A stretch of 39,895 bases of DNA from contig JACPSU010000103.1 in assembly GCA_016193105.1 (NCBI GenBank), forward strand, positions 1 to 39,895. Direction: 5' to 3'. Under the pieces are notes generated by a model. It did not search any database. It was given only the letters and a program-made list of their open reading frames with translations, and was not told the DNA's origin. Below are positions 7,035 to 35,143 of this stretch, piece by piece. Numbering within the stretch: the first letter of the stretch is position 1; the number at the start of each line of letters is the position of its first letter. Source of the stretch: Deltaproteobacteria bacterium. Lineage in GTDB: Bacteria > Bdellovibrionota > JACOXK01 > 2-02-FULL-40-11. A program made the translations under genes and the position numbers.

Positions 7035-8458
7035 AAGCCACAAAAGCAAAGCTGGTTGGGGGGGATCGCGATGCCCTAAAAACATCGTTACCTTTTAAAG
7101 GAGTTTCTCAAAACTCTAAAACCATTCATTCGGGAGAGCTTTTTATTGCCATTGTGGGGCAACGGCTGGATGGCCATGAGTTTTTAAAAGAAGCTTTTGA
7201 CCGAGGGGTGAGAGGTGCCCTGGTTCAAAAGGGATGTTATTCTCCCAAAGAATTTCCCGAGGCCATGTTTTTTGAGGTTTTGGATACAACAAAAGCTTTA
7301 GGAGATTTGGCACATTTCCATCGTCAGAAATTTAAAATTCCATTGGTTGGAATTACAGGATCGAATGGTAAAACTACAACCAAAGACCTCCTGGCGCATC
7401 TTTTAAAAACAAAAATGAATGTTCTTAAAACCGAAGGAAATCTCAATAACTTGATTGGTCTTCCCTTTACACTTTTTCGTTTAAATTCCTCTCACGAAAT
7501 TGCACTTTTAGAAATGGGGATGTCTTTTCCATTTGAGATTGAAAGACTATCTCAGATTGCTCAACCGACAGCAGGACTTATTACCAATATTGGAAAAGCG
7601 CATTTGGCAACGATGGAATCGATGGGAAAGATTGCCAAGTCCAAAGGAGCACTTTTCAAATCTTTGTCTTCAAAAAATATCGCTTTTATTAATAAGGATG
7701 ATCCCTATCTCAATCCTTTTTGTAAAAAAGTAAAATCGCAAGTTCGAACATACAGTCTTAAAACCAAAGCAGATGCCAAGGTATCTGTAAGAGGAACTAT
7801 TTTAGAAGATTTGGGTCTTAAAGGGGTTGTGATGAAATGTGAATGGAGCTTACCTCAAAAAGAAGTCATTAAATTTCATTTGCCTTTGAATGGCCAGCAC
7901 CATGCTCAAAATGCACTGGCTGCCGTTTGTGTGGCTTCTTATTTTGGAGTTCCTGCGCAAAAGATAAAATCAGCCATTGAGTCTTTTATTCCAACAGAAG
8001 GACGTTCCCATATTCTCCATTTAAGTTATGGAATTATTTTGATTGATGATAGCTATAATGCCAATCCCGATTCTATGGCTGCAGGGCTAAAAATGCTTAA
8101 AAATATATCAAAAAATCAAAAAACGTATGCTGTTTTGGGGGATATGCTTGAGCTTGGCTCAAAAGAAAAGCAGTATCATGCTGAAATTGGCAGAATCATT
8201 AAGAAAATTGGGATTGATAATGTATTGACCTTTGGTTCCCTTTCTCAGTATATTGTAAAAGAGGCGGATAAAAATAAGAAAATTCGGACGTTTTGGACTT
8301 TAAATCAGGACGAGCTAATATCTCAATTAAAACAATATCTTAAGTTAAGTCCTGGCGTTATTTTAGTCAAAGGATCTCACAGTATGAAAATGGAAAAAGT
8401 GGTAGAAGCGTTAAAAACTACTTTTGGAGCAGGTGTGCCAATGGAGGGACAGACCTAG
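7010..8458 (+). CDS. murF: UDP-N-acetylmuramoyl-tripeptide--D-alanyl-D-alanine ligase
   Basis: GITGSNGKTTT P-loop, DDSYNANP motif, position after murE. Overlaps murE by 25 nt. Confidence 0.9.
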   Translation: MFTTEEILKATKAKLVGGDRDALKTSLPFKGVSQNSKTIHSGELFIAIVGQRLDGHEFLKEAFDRGVRGALVQKGCYSPKEFPEAMFFEVLDTTKALGDLAHFHRQKFKIPLVGITGSNGKTTTKDLLAHLLKTKMNVLKTEGNLNNLIGLPFTLFRLNSSHEIALLEMGMSFPFEIERLSQIAQPTAGLITNIGKAHLATMESMGKIAKSKGALFKSLSSKNIAFINKDDPYLNPFCKKVKSQVRTYSLKTKADAKVSVRGTILEDLGLKGVVMKCEWSLPQKEVIKFHLPLNGQHHAQNALAAVCVASYFGVPAQKIKSAIESFIPTEGRSHILHLSYGIILIDDSYNANPDSMAAGLKMLKNISKNQKTYAVLGDMLELGSKEKQYHAEIGRIIKKIGIDNVLTFGSLSQYIVKEADKNKKIRTFWTLNQDELISQLKQYLKLSPGVILVKGSHSMKMEKVVEALKTTFGAGVPMEGQT

Positions 8459-8461
8459 TTC

Positions 8462-9538
8462 ATGCTCTATCATCTCTTGTATCCTCTTCATGAAAGCTTC
8501 AATGCATTTAATGTTTTTAAATATATTACCTTTCGTACGTTTGCCGCAGGCCTCACGGCTCTCCTTTTAAGTTTTGTTTTTGGCCCGGCGTTTATTCGAT
8601 TTTTAAAAGTAAAACAATTTGAACAGGCGATTCGCACAGATGGCCCAGCTTCCCATTTGGTCAAGCAGGGAACGCCAACCATGGGAGGAATTCTAATTCT
8701 TTTTTGTTTAATTGTGGCAACCCTTCTTTGGGTGGATCTTAAAAATCCATATGTATGGATTGTTTTAGGGGTGACCTTGACCTATGGTTTGATCGGATTT
8801 TGGGATGATTACACTAAAATTATTCTTAAAAATTCTAAAGGTATTTCTGCAAAAACAAAACTCTTTTGTCAAATTATGTTTGCTACGTTGGCGGCCCTTT
8901 GGATGTATCAAAATCAAGCGATCAGTACAGATCTGACTTTTCCTTTTTTGAAAAATTTCGTTCTTCCCTTGGGATATTTTTATATTCCCTTTGCTGTTCT
9001 TGTCATTGTAGGAACTTCCAATGCTGTGAATTTAACTGATGGATTGGATGGCTTGGCCATTGGGCCTGTGATTACGGTGGCCGGAACATTTTTGCTGCTT
9101 TGCTACATTGCGGGGCACGCTAAAATTGCCCAATATCTTCAGGTCGCATTTATCCCAGGGACAGGAGAGCTTGCTATTTTTTGTGGAGCGATTGTGACGG
9201 CAGGCTTGGGTTTTCTTTGGTTTTCAAGTTATCCAGCGGCTATTTTTATGGGAGATGTGGGCTCTCTAGCTTTGGGCGGAGCATTAGGAACCTTAGCGAT
9301 TATGGTAAAACAAGAAATTTTACTTATGATTGTTGGAGGCATCTTTGTGGCAGAAGCTGTCTCTGTGATTTCTCAAGTGATTTCCTATAAACTGACTAAA
9401 AAAAGAATTTTTAAAATGGCGCCTGTTCATCATCATTTTGAACTTTTGGGATGGCCTGAGCCTAAAGTCGTGGTTCGATTTTGGATTATTTCTATTGTTT
9501 TAGCTTTGATTGCATTATCGACTCTAAAATTAAGGTGA
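8462..9538 (+). CDS. mraY: phospho-N-acetylmuramoyl-pentapeptide transferase
   Basis: Polytopic membrane protein with [20 protein letters not shown] and HHHFE motifs. Confidence 0.95.
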
Positions 9539-9542
9539 TACG

Positions 9543-10898
9543 ATGATCTTAAAAAATAAAAAAGTTGTTATTATCGGGCTTGCCAGAAGTGGAGTGGCTG
9601 TAGCGCAATTTGCAACGCAACGCGGAGCGAAGGTTACGGTGACAGATTTGAAGACCAAAGCAGAGCTTCAATCTTATCTTAAACTTTTGGCACCGTATAA
9701 AAAGATCAAATATGAATTGGGGCGGCATCCTTTAAAAACTCTTTTGGCGGCAGATCTTTTTGTAGTGAGTCCTGGTGTTCCATTGACCAACCCTTTGATT
9801 GAACAAGCAGTTAAGAAAAATAAAAAAATAATGAGTGAAATTGAATTTGCATTTCAATTTATTACTGTCCCCATTATTGCTGTGACTGGAACTAATGGCA
9901 AAACGACAACAACGATGATGATTGGAGAAATGCTAAAAAATGCCAAGAAAAAAGTTTTTGTAGGGGGAAATATTGGCAATGCCTTGACCAACATGCTTTT
10001 AAGTAAAGAAAAATATCAGGTTGCTGTAGCTGAAGTGAGTAGCTTCCAATTGGAACATGTTTCAAGTTTTCAGCCTAAGGTTGCGCTCATTCTTAATGTG
10101 ACCCCCGATCATTTAGATCGCCATGGTTCAATGGAAAATTATCGAAAGGTGAAAGGGCGCATTTTTCAAAATCAAAGAGCTACGGATGCTCTCATTTTAA
10201 ATGCTGATGATGAACTTGTAAAAACATATGCTCTAGAATCAAAATCACATGCTTATTTTTTTGGAAAAGGGGGGCTCTCGGAAGGACAAGAGGGGGTCTA
10301 TTATAAAGAAGGCCGTTTTTATCTAAAGACCAAAGAGCTGGGACGAGAACAATATGTGACAGATCAAGTTAAGGTGAAGGGAGATCACAACAAGGAAAAT
10401 TTTATGGCCTCCCTTTTGGCAGCTAAAATTTTAAAATGTTCTCCGGAAGCCATTCAGACGACGCTGAATAATTTCCAAGGAGTTACTCACCGTCTGGAAT
10501 ATGTGAAGACGAGAGGGTATGTGGAATTTTATAACGACTCTAAAGCAACCAACCCTTATTCTGTCATGAGATCTCTGGAGAGCTTTACAAAGCCGCTCAT
10601 TCTTATTATGGGAGGGAGGGATAAAGGCTGTGAGTTTGAAATTTTAAGACCTTTAATCCAACAAAAAGTAAAAAATCTCATTCTCTTAGGAGAGGCGAAA
10701 GAAAAAATAAATAGAGCCATTGGGGACTATACTGAAACTTTTCTAGTGGGAACGTTAGAGGAAGCTCTTTTTATGGCCTATCAAAAATCTCGAGCAGGAG
10801 ATGTTATCCTCTTTTCTCCAGGGTGTTCAAGTTTTGATATGTTTAAAAATTACGAAGATAGAGGCGATCGGTTTAAAGAGCTATTGCGAGATCTTTAA
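9543..10898 (+). CDS. murD: UDP-N-acetylmuramoylalanine--D-glutamate ligase
   Basis: N-terminal Rossmann motif (GLARSG), VTGTNGKTTT P-loop, dcw order. Confidence 0.92.
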   Translation: MILKNKKVVIIGLARSGVAVAQFATQRGAKVTVTDLKTKAELQSYLKLLAPYKKIKYELGRHPLKTLLAADLFVVSPGVPLTNPLIEQAVKKNKKIMSEIEFAFQFITVPIIAVTGTNGKTTTTMMIGEMLKNAKKKVFVGGNIGNALTNMLLSKEKYQVAVAEVSSFQLEHVSSFQPKVALILNVTPDHLDRHGSMENYRKVKGRIFQNQRATDALILNADDELVKTYALESKSHAYFFGKGGLSEGQEGVYYKEGRFYLKTKELGREQYVTDQVKVKGDHNKENFMASLLAAKILKCSPEAIQTTLNNFQGVTHRLEYVKTRGYVEFYNDSKATNPYSVMRSLESFTKPLILIMGGRDKGCEFEILRPLIQQKVKNLILLGEAKEKINRAIGDYTETFLVGTLEEALFMAYQKSRAGDVILFSPGCSSFDMFKNYEDRGDRFKELLRDL

Positions 10899-22167: not shown

Positions 22168-22802
22168 ATGTCAATGATTCAATTAAAAACATATATTTTT
22201 TTAGATTCACTGCAACCCCAACTTGCTACTTTTGTGGGCACAACCGCCAATGGATTTCTCCCTTCTCCTTATGATGCCTCTTTATTTGTAGAAATTGCTC
22301 CTGGGATTGCCATTAATCGAGTGCTAGATTCAGCGCTGAAAGCCACAAAGGTTCGTCCGGCCTATCAAATTGTGGAGCGATCGTTTGGAATGTTAGAAGT
22401 GCACCATCCGATCCGGATCAAGGCGAAGTCAAACAAGCAGGGCTTGCTGTGCTCAAAGGTTTGGAGAGCACAGAAGAAAAAAGACAAAAACCAAAAATTG
22501 CGACCAACCAAGTCATTCGCTCGATCGAAGCCGATCAAGCCACCATTATTAATCGAAGAAGACAGGGCTCGATGGTGCTTCCCGGCCAATCTTTATTTAT
22601 TTTGGAAACCCATCCTGCTTCTTATATTGCGTTTGCGGCCAATGAAGCCGAAAAAGCCGCACGCATTCATTTAATTGAAATGATTCCCTTCGGAGCTTTT
22701 GGAAGATTGTATTTAAGTGGGTCGGAGTCAGAGATTGATTCTGCCCGGGATGCCGCGATACAGGCATTGGAGTCTGTAAGCGGAGTGGAAAGTAAAGACT
22801 AA
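22168..22802 (+). pseudogene. tandem BMC-domain shell protein (BMC-T-like) interrupted by a frameshift near 22405-22420
   Basis: Frame 1 (22168->) gives a good first BMC domain up to ..[12 protein letters not shown] and then basic junk. Frame 3 is open from 22317 and reads ..[19 protein letters not shown].. followed by a full second BMC domain ([50 protein letters not shown]) to the stop at 22802. Confidence 0.7.
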
Positions 22803-22812
22803 GGAGGTCACT

Positions 22813-23136
22813 ATGTCAGATGCATTAGGTCTATTAGAAACAAAAGGCTTTGCAGCCATGGTTGAAGCTGCAGATGCTATGGTCAAAGCTGCCAAAGTAG
22901 AATTGGTTGGCTATGAAAAAATTGGTGCAGGTCTTGTCACCGCCATTGTTCGCGGGGATGTGGCTGCAGTGAAAGCTGCAACCGAAGCCGGTGCCAGAAG
23001 CGCAGAAAAAGTTGGAGAACTTGTGGCTGTTCATGTCATTCCTCGTCCACATACGAATCTTGAATCTTCTCTCCCTTTGGGACGTGGACCAGAAACAGAA
23101 GCTCCAGCTCGTCGTACCAAAGAAGCTAGAGCATAA
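22813..23136 (+). CDS. BMC-H shell hexamer protein (PduA/EutM/CcmK family) with a charged C-terminal tail
   Basis: [61 protein letters not shown] is the canonical BMC domain. AAGGAGG lies 7 nt upstream of the ATG. Confidence 0.92.
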
Positions 23137-23156: not shown

Positions 23157-23450
23157 ATGTTTGTTGGTCGTGTCGTAGGGACAGTTGTCTCTACACAAAA
23201 AGATCCAGCTCTTTTGTCCACTAAACTTTTGGTGGTAGAGCAGACCGATATGCGCGGTTCGCCTAAAGGCGCTCATCTCGTAGCCGTAGATTCTGTGGGG
23301 GCTGGTGTTGGTGAGCTCGTACTGTATGCGTCTGGAAGTTCTGCGCGCCAAACCGAAATCACTCAGAATAAACCGGTCGATGCCGTCATCATGGGGATTA
23401 TTGATACCATCACGGTCAAAGGCGAAACCGTCTTTACCAAAGAGAAGTGA
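23157..23450 (+). CDS. BMC-P vertex pentamer protein (EutN/CcmL family), paralog 1
   Basis: MFVGRVVGTVVSTQKDPALLSTKLLVVEQ...AVIMGIIDTI is typical of EutN/CcmL. Confidence 0.88.
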   Translation: MFVGRVVGTVVSTQKDPALLSTKLLVVEQTDMRGSPKGAHLVAVDSVGAGVGELVLYASGSSARQTEITQNKPVDAVIMGIIDTITVKGETVFTKEK

Positions 23451-24868
23451 TGAACCAAGATCAAATCTCTCATGTGGTTGAAAAAGTACTTGAGCGTCTG
23501 AAAACCACAGAAGCTTGGTCTCCAAAAGAAGACACGGTTATTTCTCCTCTCAAATTTATTTCTAAAAGTGGTCTTTTTGATTCTGTAGAAGAAGCTGTTC
23601 AAGCTGCCATTGAGGCGCAACGAGAACTCGTTCGTCTTTCTTTAGAGAAAAGAAAAGAGTTAATTGAAAAAATTCGCGAGGCCTGTCGCGCGGAAGCTAA
23701 AAATTTAGCTGAGATGGCGGTCAAAGAAACGGGCCTGGGACGGGTCGAAGATAAAATCCAAAAAAATCTTTTGGTGATCAATAAAACCCCAGGGGTGGAA
23801 GCGGTAGAACCTTGTGTGTTTACTGGAGATCATGGCCTCACTCTGGTCGAACGTGCGCCCTATGGTGTGATTGGAGCGATTACCCCCTGTACCAATCCCA
23901 CAGAAACGATTATTTGCAATAGCATTGGAATGATTGCCGCCGGAAATAGCGTGGTCTTTAATGCGCACCCCTTGGCCAAAAATGTGTGTGCCAAAATTGT
24001 TGATATTATTAATCGAGCCATTGTCGATAACGGCGGACCCCATAACGTGCTCTCTTCGATTTATAATCCGTCGATTGCAACTGCTCAAGAGCTCATGAAA
24101 CACAAAAAAATTAGACTTTTGGTTGTGACCGGAGGGCCAGATGTGGTCAAAGCGGCGATGAATTCTGGAAAAAAAGTGATTGCGGCAGGACCTGGAAATC
24201 CTCCTGTGGTAGTGGATGAAACAGCAAATATTGAACAAGCGGCACGAGATATTGTGCGGGGTGCCAGCCTCGATAACAACATTGTTTGCATTGCAGAAAA
24301 AGAAATTATTTGTGTGGACTCTGTGGCAGACGCTTTAAAAGAAGCGATGAAAAAACATGGAGTCTATGAAGTTAATCCCTATCAATTAAAACAGCTTGAG
24401 AAAGTCATTTTAAAAGAAACGACTCCCAACAAGGCCTTTATTGGAAAAAATGCGAGTGTAATTTTAAAAGAAATTGGAGTAACAGTTGGCGATGACATCC
24501 GTCTTGTTTTGGCTGAAACCCCTGCCGATCATTTGTTTGTAACGCGAGAACTTTTAATGCCTGTGCTTCCTTTGGTTCGGGTGAAAGATGTGGATGAAGC
24601 TATTGAACTTGCTAAAGAAGTAGAGCATGGATTTGGTCACACCGCTGTGATGCATTCTAAAAATATTGATCACCTTCATAAAATGGCCAAGAGAGTTCAA
24701 ACGGCTATTTTTGTGAAAAATGGCCCCTCTTTTTCAGGCCTTGGGCTTGAAGGTGAAGGATATACCTCTTTTACAATTGCCTCCCCAACAGGTGAAGGAC
24801 TCACCTCTGCGAAAAATTTTACAAAAGAATTGCGGTGTGTCCTTAAAGACAGCTTCCGCATAATATGA
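23450..24868 (+). CDS. CoA-acylating aldehyde dehydrogenase (EutE/PduP type) with an N-terminal encapsulation-peptide-like extension
   Basis: AAGPGNPPVVVDETANI and catalytic DNNIVCIAEKE motifs. About 40 aa of N-terminal extension contains the amphipathic helix DQISHVVEKVLERLK. The ATG at 23450 overlaps the upstream TGA (TGATG); GTG 23447 is an alternative start. Confidence 0.9.
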   Translation: MNQDQISHVVEKVLERLKTTEAWSPKEDTVISPLKFISKSGLFDSVEEAVQAAIEAQRELVRLSLEKRKELIEKIREACRAEAKNLAEMAVKETGLGRVEDKIQKNLLVINKTPGVEAVEPCVFTGDHGLTLVERAPYGVIGAITPCTNPTETIICNSIGMIAAGNSVVFNAHPLAKNVCAKIVDIINRAIVDNGGPHNVLSSIYNPSIATAQELMKHKKIRLLVVTGGPDVVKAAMNSGKKVIAAGPGNPPVVVDETANIEQAARDIVRGASLDNNIVCIAEKEIICVDSVADALKEAMKKHGVYEVNPYQLKQLEKVILKETTPNKAFIGKNASVILKEIGVTVGDDIRLVLAETPADHLFVTRELLMPVLPLVRVKDVDEAIELAKEVEHGFGHTAVMHSKNIDHLHKMAKRVQTAIFVKNGPSFSGLGLEGEGYTSFTIASPTGEGLTSAKNFTKELRCVLKDSFRII

Positions 24869-24873
24869 TGGGT

Positions 24874-25010
24874 CTGTTGAAAAAGTTAAAGCTGTTCAAA
24901 AAGGCCCAGATACTAGGCGCCCAAGGAGTGACGACTGAGGCGTACTTAATCGTACGTCGAAGGAGGCACGACGAGGGTAACGACGGAGATGGGACTTTTT
25001 CAACAGCTTT
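24874..25010 (+). promoter_or_regulatory. GC-rich structured intergenic element bounded by a 13-bp perfect inverted repeat; candidate cis-regulatory or processing RNA within the BMC operon
   Basis: CTGTTGAAAAAGT (24874-24886) pairs with ACTTTTTCAACAG (24994-25006). A second left-arm copy, AAAGCTGTTCAAAAAGG, sits at 24888-24904. The core carries three ACGAC-GAGG motifs and two AAGGAG. The right arm ends at the start codon of the next gene. Confidence 0.5.
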
Positions 25011-25565
25011 ATGATGAAACCAGCAATTGGACTTATAGAACTTAGCAGTATTGCGCGTGGGTTTTTGGCGCAAGATGCGATGATTAAAAAAGCTTCCGTG
25101 GAGCTTTTGATGTCTGAAACCACCTCTCCTGGGAAATATTTGGTTTTGGTCAGTGGCGATGTGGCTTCGGTTCAAGAGGCTACACAGGCGGGCATTCAAA
25201 TAGCCGAAAGTTTTCTCGTAGATTCTTTATTTATTCCCAATGTGCATGAACAAGTTGTCCCTGCAATTAAAAAGCACTTTCAAAAAACAAAATTAGATTC
25301 TGTGGGAGTTGTAGAAACGTTGTCTGTAGCTTCAGCGATTGTTTCAGCCGATCAAGCCTTAAAAACGGCTCATGTGAGTTTGGTTGAAATGAGATTGGGG
25401 CAAGGGTTGGGGGGAAAAGGATATTTTGTTTTAAGTGGAGCTTTAAGTGAAGTCGAAGCCGCTGTAAGCCAGGCAGTTAAAGTTTTAGAAGGATCTAATA
25501 TGTATTTACGAAGTGAGTTGATTGCCCGTCCTCATGAGGATTTTTCTGTGAGAGTATCGCCATGA
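25011..25565 (+). CDS. BMC-T shell protein, PduT-like tandem BMC domains (cysteine-free)
   Basis: 184 aa, collinear by eye with Salmonella PduT (AIGLIELSSIA..DAM.K.A.V.LL.S.T..PGK...VGVVET.SVA..I.AAD.A.K...V.LV......GGK.Y....G..S.V..AV......IPRPHE). Position 39 is Ser where PduT has the Fe-S ligand Cys38. Confidence 0.85.
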   Translation: MMKPAIGLIELSSIARGFLAQDAMIKKASVELLMSETTSPGKYLVLVSGDVASVQEATQAGIQIAESFLVDSLFIPNVHEQVVPAIKKHFQKTKLDSVGVVETLSVASAIVSADQALKTAHVSLVEMRLGQGLGGKGYFVLSGALSEVEAAVSQAVKVLEGSNMYLRSELIARPHEDFSVRVSP

Positions 25566-25825
25566 ATTTAGGAAAAGTGTTGGGAGTGGTAGTAGCCACT
25601 CAAAAAGATTCTTCTTTAAAGGCTTCAGCGCTCTATGTTTTAGAGCCTCAAGACGAACATCAAAAGCCAACGGGAGATTTATTGATTGCTGCAGATACGG
25701 TGGGTTCTCGCCCGGGAGATCAAGTGATTTGGGTTTCTTCGCGAGAAGCAGCGTTAGCGATGCCAGAAACTTTTACCCCCGTCGACGCCGCCATTATTGG
25801 AATCGTGGATTCGGTGTCTGTATGA
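25562..25825 (+). CDS. BMC-P vertex protein (EutN/CcmL family), paralog 2
   Basis: MNLGKVLGVVVATQKDSSLKASALYVLEP...AAIIGIVDSV. ATGA overlap with the upstream BMC-T. Confidence 0.88.
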   Translation: MNLGKVLGVVVATQKDSSLKASALYVLEPQDEHQKPTGDLLIAADTVGSRPGDQVIWVSSREAALAMPETFTPVDAAIIGIVDSVSV

Positions 25826-26088
25826 TCTTAGCCAAAGTCTTAGGCCCTGTCGTGGCCACACAAAAACACGAAGCACTCAAGGGTCGTACGCTTTATGTGG
25901 TCCAACCTATCGATAAAAATAAAAATGCTAAAGGAAATACGTTCTTAGCTCTAGATTCTGTTCAAGCTCGGGTGGGAGATCTTGTTCTCATCAATCGTGA
26001 AGGAGGCTCTTGCCGCCAAATCCTTCAAAATGATCTTGCTCCTATCAATGCCTTAATCTGTGGAATTGTTGATCAGCTAGATATCTAA
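25822..26088 (+). CDS. BMC-P vertex protein (EutN/CcmL family), paralog 3
   Basis: MILAKVLGPVVATQKHEALKGRTLYVVQP...ALICGIVDQL. ATG 25822 overlaps the TGA of paralog 2 (ATGA). The 25729 start in the ORF track is an out-of-context extension. Confidence 0.88.
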   Translation: MILAKVLGPVVATQKHEALKGRTLYVVQPIDKNKNAKGNTFLALDSVQARVGDLVLINREGGSCRQILQNDLAPINALICGIVDQLDI

Positions 26089-27917: not shown

Positions 27918-28040
27918 TTGGGCTCCGTTTTTTATAAATTTTAAAGAGGGGAAAGGGGTAAAAAACAGTTTTATATAGCATAATTTTATAGGAGGAGCAA
28001 TTGATTTTGCCTAAAATTTATGCTACAAAGGAACGTTTTT

Positions 28041-28835
28041 ATGAAAATCCTTAGGCCCATTTTGATTTTGATGTTTTTCTCTCATCTCAGTTTTGCACAA
28101 ACACCTTTGAATTCTCGTCTCTTAAGTTTGGATGAGATTAAAACACAGGCGAATGAGAGTTTAAAGAGTTTTACAGAACGTACAGGAGTTGTTTCTAATT
28201 TTAGATCTTTAGCTCCAGCAAGTCCCTTGGGAATTTGGGGATGGAATGTTGGGGTAGAAGTGACTTCTCTTCCTCAAAACACCTTTGATATTTTAAGACA
28301 GCCTTTTGATTTACCTTCTTATTTTCCACGTTTTCATGTAGTCAAAGGGTTAACTCCTAATCTTGATTTTGAAGCTTCACTTTTGCTTCCTCGGTTTGTA
28401 ATGGGGCAGAATGCATTGCCTCAAGAAATTAGAAATATTGCAGTGTATGGAGCAGGTTTAAAATATGCACTTCTTCGAGAAGAGGAGTTTCCAATCTCTC
28501 TAGCCGTTCGGGCCACCTATAATCGTTTGTATCTGAGTTTTTTTAAATCAGATACTTATGGGGCTGATCTTTCCTTGAGTCGTTCTGTCAAGCTTCCCAT
28601 TATTCCTTTGCAGCTAACACCTTATGCTGGAATTGGATATATGGCGATTAATGGTGTATTTAATAAAAGTTTAATTGGTCTTGATGTTTCTCAGATTCAT
28701 ACCCTTCAAGATTATCGTTATTTTGTGGGGATGAGTACCAAACTTTTTATCTTTAATTTTACCAGCCAAATAGATGTTCCAGCCACGTTCAAAAAAATTG
28801 ACTCTGTCAGCTTTAAGTTCAGTCTAGAAATCTGA
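28041..28835 (+). CDS. putative outer-membrane beta-barrel protein
   Basis: ATG 28041, signal peptide MKILRPILILMFFSHLSFAQ, alternating hydrophobic beta-strand pattern with Gly/aromatic girdle residues. Confidence 0.55.
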   Translation: MKILRPILILMFFSHLSFAQTPLNSRLLSLDEIKTQANESLKSFTERTGVVSNFRSLAPASPLGIWGWNVGVEVTSLPQNTFDILRQPFDLPSYFPRFHVVKGLTPNLDFEASLLLPRFVMGQNALPQEIRNIAVYGAGLKYALLREEEFPISLAVRATYNRLYLSFFKSDTYGADLSLSRSVKLPIIPLQLTPYAGIGYMAINGVFNKSLIGLDVSQIHTLQDYRYFVGMSTKLFIFNFTSQIDVPATFKKIDSVSFKFSLEI

Positions 28836-32651: not shown

Positions 32652-33638
32652 GTGAAAGAGTCAAATAAAGTCAACATAATAGATGAATTTTATATCGTGA
32701 AGACCGTCGCGCAGACCGAGCGGGCACGGTTCGAGCGAAGCGAGAGAGCGAGGTCGAGCGCGAGCGCGAATTCCCCGCTGGGGAATTCGATAGCGTGTCT
32801 GAAAGAGATAAAATTCATCTATTATGTTATTTTCTTTGTTTCTTTTCTGTTTACTTACTCTACTCTTCAAGCGCAGACGGGGGAGGAGAAGTTTTTGAAA
32901 TGGGTGGAGAGGGAGATTGAGAAAAATAATAAAAAGGATGCTATTGAAGTTCGGCCCTTAGAACAAGCCAAAGCATTTTTCAATGGTCCCAAAGATTCCC
33001 CTTTAGAAAAGAAAATCACGGTCGAGCCCACGGGAGATTTTATTTATACAGAGATTGCAGAGCCCTTTGAGGGGGATTACAAAAAAGCAGTCCGTCTGTA
33101 TTGGGATATTACAACAGGTAAACAAAAGCCTAGTCTTTTTATTGAAAGCGGGGCGGGACGGGATGAGAAGGTTACAAATCTTCGTTCCATAGATAACGGA
33201 GTCGAATTTATCTCAGATCGTGTGTATCAAAGCTCTTTGGCATTTAATAGTCGAACAACCATTCACCTTCATCGTTTTGATGTGGAATCTAAACATTTAG
33301 TTATTGTCGTCAATGAAATGGTCAAAGATTGGGGTGCGGAGTTAGCTAAAAAGAAAGTGAAGCGACTCTCCAAATCTTATTACCCTATTTTTCGCGATTT
33401 AAATATTGATGTCTATCAAGAAAGTGAGCCCAATAAATTTTGGTACCACTCTTATGCTCTTTATAAAGGGCAAGGGATGAAATCGACCAACCTCTCTTTA
33501 AATGTGGCTAAAAAAGTGGGAGATGTTTTTTCTTTTGGAATGCTGGATAAGGGATTGAAGGCTAAGCTGACTTCTGAGGCGATGAAGATTTGGGAACGTC
33601 GTCGCCAAGTATTTCAGGATTTAATTCTTAAGCCTTAA
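32652..33638 (+). CDS. exported protein of unknown function; 5' end remodelled by a GC-rich foldback cassette (start uncertain)
   Basis: The ORF is open from GTG 32652. A convincing signal peptide (KEIKFIYYVIFFVSFLFTYSTLQAQ) begins only at codon 50, right after a second copy of TGAAAGAG. Alternative starts are GTG 32697 or CTG 32799. Confidence 0.6.
   Translation: MKESNKVNIIDEFYIVKTVAQTERARFERSERARSSASANSPLGNSIACLKEIKFIYYVIFFVSFLFTYSTLQAQTGEEKFLKWVEREIEKNNKKDAIEVRPLEQAKAFFNGPKDSPLEKKITVEPTGDFIYTEIAEPFEGDYKKAVRLYWDITTGKQKPSLFIESGAGRDEKVTNLRSIDNGVEFISDRVYQSSLAFNSRTTIHLHRFDVESKHLVIVVNEMVKDWGAELAKKKVKRLSKSYYPIFRDLNIDVYQESEPNKFWYHSYALYKGQGMKSTNLSLNVAKKVGDVFSFGMLDKGLKAKLTSEAMKIWERRRQVFQDLILKP
32661..32828. 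repeat. foldback cassette: 21-bp perfect inverted repeat around a GC-rich core with an internal 10-bp hairpin, flanked by the direct repeat TGAAAGAG
   Basis: AACATAATAGATGAATTTTAT (32673-32693) is the exact reverse complement of 32808-32828. Core hairpin CGAATTCCCC-GCT-GGGGAATTCG at 32767-32789. GTGAAAGAG (32652-32660) and CTGAAAGAG (32799-32807) are exactly 147 nt apart. Confidence 0.6.
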
Positions 33639-35143
33639 TTTTTAGAAAGATCCAAAAAGGGGAGATAATTAGCTTGGGGATGAAAGTAAAATCCCTTAAT
33701 GTGTGTAGAGTAAACGGCCGTGTTATTCAGATGCCATAAGGAAATATAAGGGACATCTTCTGCAACTATTTTTTGAACCTCCGCATAAATCTTTTTTCTC
33801 TTTTGAATATTCAATGTGATGCGTCCTTCTGAAGTGAGTTTGTCGACTTTAGGGTTCATATAGAAGACCCTATTTTTTCCGGGAGGAACATTCGAAGAGT
33901 GAAAGATTTCATACAAAATATCTGGATCTGTGACCCCAACCCACCTGGATGAAAAAAGTTGAAAATTTCCGGTTTGAATATCATTAAAAAAAGTTCCCCA
34001 TTCATGAGTTCGAAGCTCAACCATAATGCCCACTTTTTTAAGATGATCCGAAATAAGCCGAGCCGTATTGACGGCTTGAATGTCGGTAGAAGTTTTAAAA
34101 ATGAGCGTCATAGGAAGTGATACGCCTGATTCTTTTAGCAGTTTTTTAGCTTTTTGGGGATCATAGGTGTAAGAGCGAACAGCGGGTTCAGTGTACCCAT
34201 TTTGAGAAGATAAAATAGAATTGGCAGGGGTAGCCATATTTTCTAAAAGATGTTCAATAATTTCTTCCCGATGGATAGCATACGCAATGGCTTGGCGAAC
34301 TTTTTTGTTTTTTAAGAGGGGATCTTTTAAATTTAATCCCAAATATGCGTATGTAATTCCCGGACTTTTGGTAAAACTTAAAGTAGATTCCTTTGAAAGC
34401 TTTGCTAAGGAATCATAGTTTAGAGCATTTTGGATGAGATCAACCTCTCCTTTTTTTAGTTTTAAAACTCGAGTGTTATCATCTTTAATAACTTTAAAAA
34501 CGAGGTTTTCTAATTTGGGATTAAATTTAAAATGGTCAGGATTTCGTTTGAGTTTTAAAGTATTGGGTTCTTTTGTCACTAATTGATATGGGCCAGATCC
34601 TAGGGGGAGCTCTTTGGAGTCTTTTGGGAGATCTTTTTGCTCTTTCGCCTGCATGGGCATGGCTTTAATGAGGGTTAAGTCTGTTAAAAAACTAGCTTGG
34701 GGAGTTTTAAGGCGAATTTCTAAAGTTAAAGGATCAAGAGCTGTGACTTTTTCCACATTTTTAAATCCACTTAAGAGGGGAGATCCAAAATTGGGGTCTT
34801 GAATTTGTTTTAGAGTAGAAACAAAGTGATCCGCCGTAATTGGAGAGCCATCCGGAAACCTCAAATTGGGCCTGAGCGTAAATTGATAGGTCGTATCGTT
34901 TAAAGTTTTCCAATTTAAAGCCAAATGAGGTACAATTTGTAAATTGTTGTCGATCATGACCAATGCGTCATAGAGCAAGGTATCGATTCTCTGAGAAGTA
35001 GCGTCTAAAGCAAAGCGGGGATCCAGATTAGAAGGCTCAGCATCAATGGCGATAACTAGGGAGTCTTTTGGAGTCAAATTTTGTCCAGAACAGCCGAAAA
35101 GAAGAAGAGAGCCTATCATTATGAGGAAACGTATGACTAACAT
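33635..35143 (-). CDS. ABC transporter substrate-binding lipoprotein, family 5 (peptide/nickel, DppA/OppA-like)
   Basis: Lipobox LLLFGCSG, then the typical SBP_bac_5 layout (..DPR.A.D..S......LYD.L...D......P.LA..W....D...Y.F.LR....F.DG.P..A.D). Confidence 0.85.
   Translation of the reverse strand: MLVIRFLIMIGSLLLFGCSGQNLTPKDSLVIAIDAEPSNLDPRFALDATSQRIDTLLYDALVMIDNNLQIVPHLALNWKTLNDTTYQFTLRPNLRFPDGSPITADHFVSTLKQIQDPNFGSPLLSGFKNVEKVTALDPLTLEIRLKTPQASFLTDLTLIKAMPMQAKEQKDLPKDSKELPLGSGPYQLVTKEPNTLKLKRNPDHFKFNPKLENLVFKVIKDDNTRVLKLKKGEVDLIQNALNYDSLAKLSKESTLSFTKSPGITYAYLGLNLKDPLLKNKKVRQAIAYAIHREEIIEHLLENMATPANSILSSQNGYTEPAVRSYTYDPQKAKKLLKESGVSLPMTLIFKTSTDIQAVNTARLISDHLKKVGIMVELRTHEWGTFFNDIQTGNFQLFSSRWVGVTDPDILYEIFHSSNVPPGKNRVFYMNPKVDKLTSEGRITLNIQKRKKIYAEVQKIVAEDVPYISLWHLNNTAVYSTHIKGFYFHPQANYLPFLDLSKN

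Follow-up and report, generated by a model that had tools for sequence, protein, structure and literature searches.

A probable recent insertion of a small foldback repeat on the stop/start overlap between the aldehyde dehydrogenase and BMC-T genes of a microcompartment operon

The locus described here raises the question of why 142 nt of strongly folded DNA should lie between two genes of a bacterial microcompartment operon whose other genes are packed with almost no room between them. The window (by which we mean the whole stretch of DNA that was analysed, 39,895 nt) contains a microcompartment operon with the gene order BMC-H (22813-23136), BMC-P (23157-23450), aldehyde dehydrogenase (AldDH; 23447..24868 on the plus strand; Pfam Aldedh, E = 3.8e-44), the tandem-BMC-domain shell gene BMC-T (25011..25565 on the plus strand; two stretches matching Pfam BMC, E = 3.9e-41) and, 3' of BMC-T, two more BMC-P genes (25562-25825 and 25822-26088). 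AldDH ends at 24868 and BMC-T starts at 25011, and the 142-nt gap thus defined contrasts with every other junction of the operon, each of which is a 4-nt overlap or a spacer of at most 20 nt. An earlier reading of the DNA letters by themselves (the sequence-only reading) had drawn attention to the gap and to the tightness of the other junctions, both of which we confirm, and had favoured a structured RNA that serves the second shell module as a translational switch, a thermosensor or an RNase processing element, with a foldback mobile cassette as its third candidate. It is the third candidate that the evidence presented here supports. We assign a probability of roughly 0.8 to the reading that the gap is a recent copy of a small, widespread foldback mobile repeat, situated on the AldDH/BMC-T stop/start overlap and belonging to a repeat family that is apparently undescribed. 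A MITE-like foldback within an operon is in itself a known phenomenon; what is worth noting in this case is the duplication of the ATGA that forms the overlap and the uncatalogued, covarying family from which the element comes.

The AldDH/BMC-T gap and its contents

The element that fills the gap (24869..25010, plus strand, 142 nt) represents a long form, in which an end is followed by an outer arm, a short spacer, an inner arm, a core, a right arm and the other end. The outer left arm, or left terminal inverted repeat (CTGTTGAAAAAGT, 24874..24886, plus strand), is the perfect complement of 24994-25006 over 13 nt, exactly where a perfect inverted repeat had been reported. The inner left arm (24887..24908, plus strand) is an internal direct copy of the arm and, as had been surmised, shares the right arm with the outer one: it pairs with 24990-25011 over 22 nt at 91% and is the arm used in the minimum-energy fold, and the alternative helices, with the outer or the inner left arm, are near isoenergetic when enforced (-55.4 vs -54.3 kcal/mol). 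The core is purine-rich and, in agreement with its first description, GC-rich (GC 0.55 over 24900-24999 vs 0.38-0.46 in the adjoining 100-nt windows), and it carries the AAGGAG..ACGAC..GAGG direct repeats and the apical hairpin CGTAC-TTAATC-GTACG (24941..24956, plus strand) that the same description listed. This hairpin is the most conserved core feature of the family discussed below (alignments A2 and A3), and its pair 64:74 is CG in 46, UA in 15 and GC in 4 of the family sequences. Folding of 24860-25030, which had been proposed as a check, gives a strong structure of -55.4 kcal/mol, as compared to -38.1 +/- 3.6 kcal/mol for shuffled sequences (z = -4.8; 0 of 200 shuffles match it). Promoter and terminator scans predicted neither on the sense strand within the element.

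The right arm (24990..25011, plus strand), which is also the right terminal inverted repeat, spans positions -21 to -1 of BMC-T and the A of its ATG. This upholds the earlier claim that the arm covers the region before a start codon that has no Shine-Dalgarno (SD) match of its own; the SD duplex at BMC-T is calculated at -3.9 kcal/mol, vs -12.3 kcal/mol for the first shell gene, and the genes downstream in the operon also start without SD sequences, via 4-nt overlaps. Apart from two bulged bases and the base immediately preceding the ATG, every position from -21 to -1 is predicted to be paired with a probability of 0.9 or more; over 24990-25009, again with the two bulged bases left aside, the unpaired probability does not exceed 0.1. 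A right arm in this position, a fold of z = -4.8 and two helices of nearly equal energy make up the case for a cis-regulatory RNA, a translational switch or thermosensor evolved for the second shell module in which the choice between the two left arms would leave the BMC-T start exposed or hidden; the extra left arm on which such a switch would depend is a feature of the family. The related loci described in the next section are what tell against it.

Two features of the gap go beyond the earlier reading. The first is an ORF of 49 codons (MMGLLKKLKLFKKAQILGAQGVTTEAYLIVRRRRHDEGNDGDGTFSTAL, 24865..25014, plus strand) that shares an ATGA overlap with the AldDH stop at one end and with the BMC-T start at the other. 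The second is the direct repeat TATGATG that flanks the element on the left (24864..24870) and on the right (25010..25016). The left copy contains ATGA at 24865-68, the position of the 4-bp duplication in the family, and in the right copy the ATGA at 25011-14 supplies both the start ATG of BMC-T and the stop TGA of the 49-codon ORF. The boundary rule of the family, applied to the window, places the element at 24869-25010 and makes ATGA the duplicated 4-mer. Neither neighbouring protein has been changed, since the left copy of ATGA retains the stop of AldDH (TGA, 24866-24868) and the right copy retains the start of BMC-T: the AldDH C-terminus (...FRII*) is unaltered by the insertion and is the same in relatives, and the BMC-T N-terminus (MMKPAIGLIEL) is equally unaltered, the protein of relative L205 beginning likewise.

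The same junction in related loci

A genome scan with the AldDH protein yielded 80 related loci, and closer relatives were sought through the BMC-T protein and then through their contigs. Exact look-up of the window BMC-T protein, with two choices of start, returned no record; exact look-up of the neighbouring BMC-P protein led to locus L081. The element is missing at the junction in all readable relatives (L001, L003, L004, L205, L206, L207-209 and L211-214), and these include relatives with BMC-T proteins 86-92% identical to that of the window. The junction reads ...attatttaaATGaaaccc in L001 (AldDH 82% identical), amounts to a few nucleotides in L003 and L004, and measures 0 nt in L207-209 (BMC-T 88%) and 3 nt in L211-214 (BMC-T 87%), in each case without the element. 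In L206 (BMC-T 88%) the empty site is an ATGA stop/start overlap (...cgaattatATGATAaaacc, ...attatATGATAaaacc), and the window, once stripped of the element and of one copy of the repeat, reads ...cgcataatATGATGaaacc, with the same architecture as L206.

The junction itself seems prone to rearrangement. In L205, the closest relative without the element (BMC-T 92%), positions 413-432 hold an unrelated 20-nt AldDH/BMC-T spacer (aacgtcttcatggataatat), and the other relatives have 0-4 nt. AldDH/BMC-T gaps of 50-170 nt in more distant loci (Chloroflexota and others) were considered as possible counterparts of the element and set aside, as they consist of unrelated sequence or of N-terminal extensions of BMC-T.

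L081 is the sole relative that carries the element, and carries it with 100% identity. Its assembly is a different one, with an overall identity to the window of 99.25-99.5%, so the element is not an assembly artefact. Elsewhere the two assemblies differ by the 95 nt at 27993-28087, which in the window encompass the SD sequence, start codon and signal peptide of a DUF6588-like gene (28020-28835) and which are missing in L081; since this stretch has no inverted repeats, the difference looks like a plain deletion in L081. A blastn search of the window and the 80 related loci with the element detected no second copy.

Judging from these junctions, the insertion postdates the split from the relatives whose BMC-T proteins are about 92% identical. 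The event that we envisage is the integration of a copy of a non-autonomous, MITE-like foldback element (about 125-150 nt) into the ATGA overlap, by which the ATGA would have been duplicated. The comparison bears with equal directness on the cis-regulatory RNA introduced above. A switch, thermosensor or processing element that had evolved for the second shell module, which was the explanation favoured by the sequence-only reading, does not survive it, failing the test of conservation that this reading had itself set: at the AldDH/BMC-T junction the related BMC loci show no conserved feature, and the element is missing even where BMC-T is 86-92% identical. Family copies, moreover, adjoin unrelated genes in either orientation, with no fixed orientation to a regulated gene. 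The Rfam scan that had been suggested produced no relevant match at E <= 10 around the element (Rfam 15, window positions 24500-25400), and nothing at E <= 0.1 overlaps the elements in 20 family loci. We therefore regard a regulatory RNA that evolved for this operon as very improbable. In favour of the foldback mobile cassette are the absence of the element in relatives, the direct repeats on its flanks and its membership of a family whose many copies are scattered beside unrelated genes.

A dispersed family of foldback repeats

The search for further copies and for covariation, likewise proposed at the outset, turned up a dispersed family whose foldback covaries. The arm pattern CTGTTSAAAAAG N{85,115} CTTTTTSAACAG, with 22 fixed and 2 two-fold positions and a chance expectation estimated at well below 1, was present in at least 120 contigs from metagenomes; among 2.9 million viral contigs it had no match. 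Most of the matches are homologous to the window element over the entire core. Iterated nhmmer searches gave about 110 non-overlapping copies, some of them in tandem and up to 4 on one contig, i.e., up to 4 per 5-9 kb of metagenome contig. The copies are intergenic and about 125-150 nt long, and the contigs that bear them come from soil, sediment and groundwater metagenomes with a host GC of 44-65%. Exact look-up of 10 proteins from family contigs placed one, in a 90% cluster with a protein of a Smithella sp. MAG. The family consensus had no blastn match among 72,556 plasmids, and a full-text literature search for the arm sequences retrieved unrelated primers only. A covariance model (R1) built from 68 family copies, with the window sequence left out, matches the window at full length (24888..25010, plus strand, 109 bits, E = 5.1e-27, model positions 1-125 of 125) and scores only 36 bits on the minus strand of the same region. 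In a scan of the 40-kb window with R1 this was the single copy, and nothing else matched.

The window contains other inverted repeats. Between a GGDEF response-regulator gene and the ORF that follows it there is a second foldback (32673-32828), whose arms measure 32 nt and are complementary at 88% and whose core is rich in GC and GA; R1 does not match it, and it may be a mobile repeat of another sort. Inside a solute-binding-protein gene there is a perfect inverted repeat of 20 nt (34325-34344 / 34513-34532), and an insertion was rejected there as the SBP_bac_5 domain is uninterrupted.

The metagenome loci also show how variable the cores can be. At least 35 loci have foldbacks of 100-140 nt with the same CTGTTGAAAAAG arms and unrelated cores (e.g., L086, L095, L097, L098 and L116), from which it follows that the arms define a superfamily wider than the R1 family. 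In L175, two same-arm foldbacks (8353-8473 and 9464-9612) flank a single ORF of 302 codons. Loci L085 (3876-4000) and L191 (1257-1380) carry the element at the same site, between flanking proteins most of which show 91-94% identity; the two copies are alike in their outer parts and very different over the central ~60 nt, which suggests core replacement or very fast core evolution. Family copies also occur head to tail, from a few to ~20 nt apart (L177, 2245-2368/2387-2510; L188, 7115-7212/7219-7344), in pairs that recall clustered REP/BIME or pneumococcal repeat clusters.

The ends of the family copies can be written as (CAGG)CTGTTSAAAAAG(G), the invariance of the arms in alignment A3 being a product of the search pattern, i.e., of a retrieved set chosen by exact arms. 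The long form adds an internal copy of the left arm and reads, from left to right, 4-bp repeat, CAGnn-TGTTGAAAAAC, spacer, CAGG-CTGTTCAAAAAGG, core, CCTTTTTCAACAG-CCTG and 4-bp repeat, with an outer arm that is recognisable in 21 of 69 family copies. Identical 4-mers (TTAG, CTAA, TTAA, TAAA, TTTA or AAAA) stand at both ends in 9 of these 21 long-form copies, as compared to 2.2 expected, and none of 2000 permutations reaches 9; two pairs among the 9 are orthologous duplicates, and so about seven of the duplications are independent. That the identical flanking 4-mers are specific to each copy indicates integration at a staggered cut. The 4-mers on the right flank are mainly CTAG, TTAG, CTAA or TTAA. 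A target preference of this type resembles that of IS5-type elements, which is a lead only, and the duplicated ATGA (within TATGATG) of the window departs from these YTAR-like 4-mers. The copies are often within about 20 nt of the end of a gene, and between co-directional genes 13 are in sense and 22 in antisense orientation, with unrelated genes adjoining them. When 1,555 ORFs of the family contigs (120 loci) were compared all against all by blastp, no neighbour recurred. An autonomous IS with the same ends (CAGGCTGTTGAAAAAG) was looked for in about 0.7 Mb of family-bearing contigs and none was found; nor, among the 120 loci, did any transposase-like ORF lie within a pair of inverted arms spaced 0.6-5 kb from each other, this sample being too small to exclude one.

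As a test of the assignment we used the published definition of a prokaryotic MITE (PMC10969869, section 2.1). Where the definition has fewer than 500 bp and no transposase gene, the element has 142 nt and a sole ORF of 49 codons without a Pfam match or a homologue; where it has terminal inverted repeats of about 4-30 bp, the element has 13 nt of perfect repeat, or 22 nt at 91%. Direct repeats are seen on either side, as TATGATG in the window and as 4-mers in 9 of the 21 long-form family copies, and the stem-loop is predicted at -55.4 kcal/mol (z = -4.8). There is, finally, a presence/absence polymorphism with an intact empty site, L206 being empty, as are L001, L205, L207-209 and L211-214. 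On these points the element agrees with the definition. Of its two further points, a parent IS was sought in the 120 loci as described above, and dispersal within a genome is seen as up to 4 copies per 5-9 kb of metagenome contig and, in this organism, as the one copy in the 40-kb window.

Whether the family is more than a plain MITE turns on its structure. RNAalifold predicts one long imperfect hairpin for the family, in which 96.1% of cells are paired, as compared to 87.2% for shuffled alignments. Both sides have changed in 174 cells, vs 52 in shuffles, and the covariation score is 0.264, vs at most 0.063 for slid controls. Compensatory changes are present in the arms of copies that were not picked by exact arms (GGATGCTC/CAGCATCC and GGCCGTTC/CAACGGCC), which points to selection on pairing and not on a sequence bound by transposase. 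One strand of the core is rich in purines (mean 0.61), and in 59 of 69 copies the predicted fold of this strand is more stable than that of the other, the family mean being -59.8 kcal/mol on the purine-rich strand; among the predicted pairs there are 125 cells of the G.U type vs 23 of the A.C type. These covariation and strand statistics are drawn from related sequences and from a structure predicted on the purine-rich strand, which G-richness alone favours. The strand-asymmetric folding hints at a strand-specific, single-stranded form that a plain cut-and-paste MITE has no need of, and on the predicted structures the foldback is under selection in the family, in the form either of RNA or of single-stranded DNA.

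Such observations open the way to a different class of structured repeat, e.g., a repeat of the REPIN/RAYT type, a palindromic element derived from IS200/IS605 or a site resembling an integron attC. Covarying stems, the strand-asymmetric fold and the ratio of G.U-type to A.C-type cells (125 vs 23) would suit such a class, as would the same arms on unrelated cores at 35 or more loci and the L175 ORF that lies between two of them. Identical 4-mers that differ from copy to copy, the mark of staggered-cut integration, run counter to it, as do mixed orientations within contigs and the lack of a recurrent integrase or RAYT-like neighbour in the family contigs, and we hold this class of explanations to be improbable. 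The particular candidates were rejected one by one. The core sites of attC are RYYYAAC / GTTRRRY, and attC sites form arrays in one orientation beside an integrase; the arms of the family match this core consensus at only 6 of 7 positions (TTTCAAC / GTTGAAA), orientations are mixed within contigs (L197) and no recombinase recurs. REPINs are not known to have target duplications and have a conserved 5' GTAG motif; the present family has the duplications and lacks the motif. The element also falls short of an IS200/IS605-derived palindromic element in a defining feature.

A bolder proposal is that the family is a strand-specific structured nucleic acid beyond selfish DNA, and that the copy in this operon has been co-opted as a translational relay or attenuator. 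Besides the covarying helices, it invokes motifs conserved in the internal loops (GCAAGGC / CAACG) and what may be a tandem G.A motif. The family shows no orientation preference, which argues against any role that requires read-through from host genes, and we think the proposal, taken as a whole, unlikely. If the mobile foldback repeat is the correct reading, the structured gap should be annotated as a recently inserted repeat, and no conserved regulator of shell stoichiometry is to be sought in it. The abundant family to which it belongs lies outside Rfam, and a literature search found no description of it; uncatalogued, covarying and strand-asymmetric families of this kind would yield false 'novel structured RNA' calls in comparative screens. 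Model R1 can be used for masking the family or for studying it.

Consequences for the operon and the closest known systems

The locus is a natural example of a mobile element that has come to lie between translationally coupled genes with neither of them harmed. Duplication of the 4-nt stop/start overlap provides one copy for each gene and, in addition, an ORF that bridges the two. By the proposed mechanism, the element and one copy of ATGA shift BMC-T by 146 nt, a distance that keeps the bridging ORF in frame, and the hairpin of the element would, in the polycistronic mRNA, bury the 21 nt before the BMC-T start. Since the 49-codon ORF begins on the stop of AldDH and ends on the start of BMC-T, ribosomes could be handed on through the hairpin: those terminating on AldDH would enter the ORF, unfold the hairpin and reach their point of termination at the BMC-T start, so that the translational coupling of AldDH to BMC-T would be relayed, probably with less efficiency. 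This relay is wholly inferred, and it may operate as outlined; in the bolder proposal described above, which we think unlikely, a relay or attenuator born of a transposon would set the ratio of the enzyme to the shell proteins of the second module.

The same overlaps could be taken as the sign of a genuine gene for a small protein of 49 aa with an amphipathic N-terminal helix (LLKKLKLFKKAQIL), for example a microcompartment adaptor resembling an encapsulation peptide. Its ATGA overlaps with both neighbours do follow the style of coupling seen elsewhere in the operon. The product, however, lacks a Pfam match, a search of 5.8 billion protein clusters gave no homologue of it, and exact look-up returned no record; it is missing in all related BMC loci, and the putative helix is the translation of two conserved arms. 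The family keeps no common open frame (35% of the combinations of copy and frame are stop-free), and the other tight intra-operon family copies that were checked have no start-to-stop bridging ORF. A protein-coding gene at this position is accordingly hard to credit, and the 49-codon ORF is probably a by-product of the insertion. With 35% of frames stop-free and one length class in three suitable, chance alone would produce a bridging ORF in about one of every eight insertions of this kind, and its presence here could be a matter of luck, possibly helped by selection against polar insertions.

A long stable hairpin within a polycistronic unit might instead be acted on by RNases, and it has been suggested that the element, whatever its origin, now serves as a processing or stability element that uncouples the mRNA abundance of AldDH from that of the shell genes. 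Correia and ERIC elements offer precedents, as reviewed in PMC10969869. Neither a terminator nor a promoter is predicted on the sense strand of the element, and processing would be a consequence of the insertion that leaves unexplained what the sequence is; as an account of the gap we consider it unlikely. By analogy with those precedents, RNase cleavage or altered decay at the hairpin is equally plausible, as a side effect, as the putative relay. Within the reading of the gap as an inserted mobile repeat, then, some secondary effect of the element on the folding, processing or translation of BMC-T mRNA is plausible.

The condition of the rest of the operon is also relevant to what the insertion may have cost. 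The locus opens with a CsoS1D-like BMC-T gene (about 22174-22800) that is frameshifted by a 5-nt tandem duplication (ATCCG) at 22405-22409. The gene is intact, with 207 codons, in L002, L207 and L211, and in L001 it is intact over the aligned residues 1-202. Either the shell operon is genuinely decaying or the frameshift is an artefact of assembly; if the frameshift is real, the operon is possibly decaying and the foldback insertion may simply be tolerated.

Several groups of bacterial repeats resemble the element in one respect or another. The REP/REPIN repeats, which are mobilised by RAYT, are abundant intergenic hairpins with compensatory evolution of their stems. The Rickettsia palindromic elements (RPEs) are palindromic, about 150 bp long and translatable after insertion; they lie in frame inside genes and encode conserved peptides, whereas the element described here is intergenic and acquires an ORF of its own through the duplicated ATGA. 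An RPE-like coding repeat was rejected on these grounds, 35% of family frames being open and none of them common.

The Correia elements (NEMIS) of Neisseria and the ERIC elements of the Enterobacteriaceae are, like the element, foldbacks of 100-160 nt that occupy intergenic or intra-operon positions and are often co-transcribed with their neighbours. As summarised in PMC10969869, RNase III cuts Correia-containing mtrCDE transcripts at the terminal inverted repeats, and ERIC insertions alter mRNA decay in Yersinia. We found no sequence similarity of the element to either group, or to any other known element in the Rfam, plasmid and literature searches; the target duplications of the present family are of 4 bp.

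The closest precedent, on the analogy of structure and setting, is Chunjie, a MITE from Geobacter uraniireducens Rf4 (Chen et al. 2008), of which summaries are given in PMC3184786 and PMC10969869. Chunjie is described in these summaries as 178-235 bp long and A+T-rich, with 21-bp TIRs and 9-bp direct repeats. By the same descriptions it differs from the 142-nt element, which has a GC-rich core and belongs to a family with 4-bp duplications, and it is by description only that the two are set apart. They are alike, as far as the summaries go, in being small and non-coding, in having TIRs and direct repeats, in folding stably and in being dispersed in a deltaproteobacterial genome, and in Geobacter, too, one recent copy of Chunjie has been inserted within an operon.
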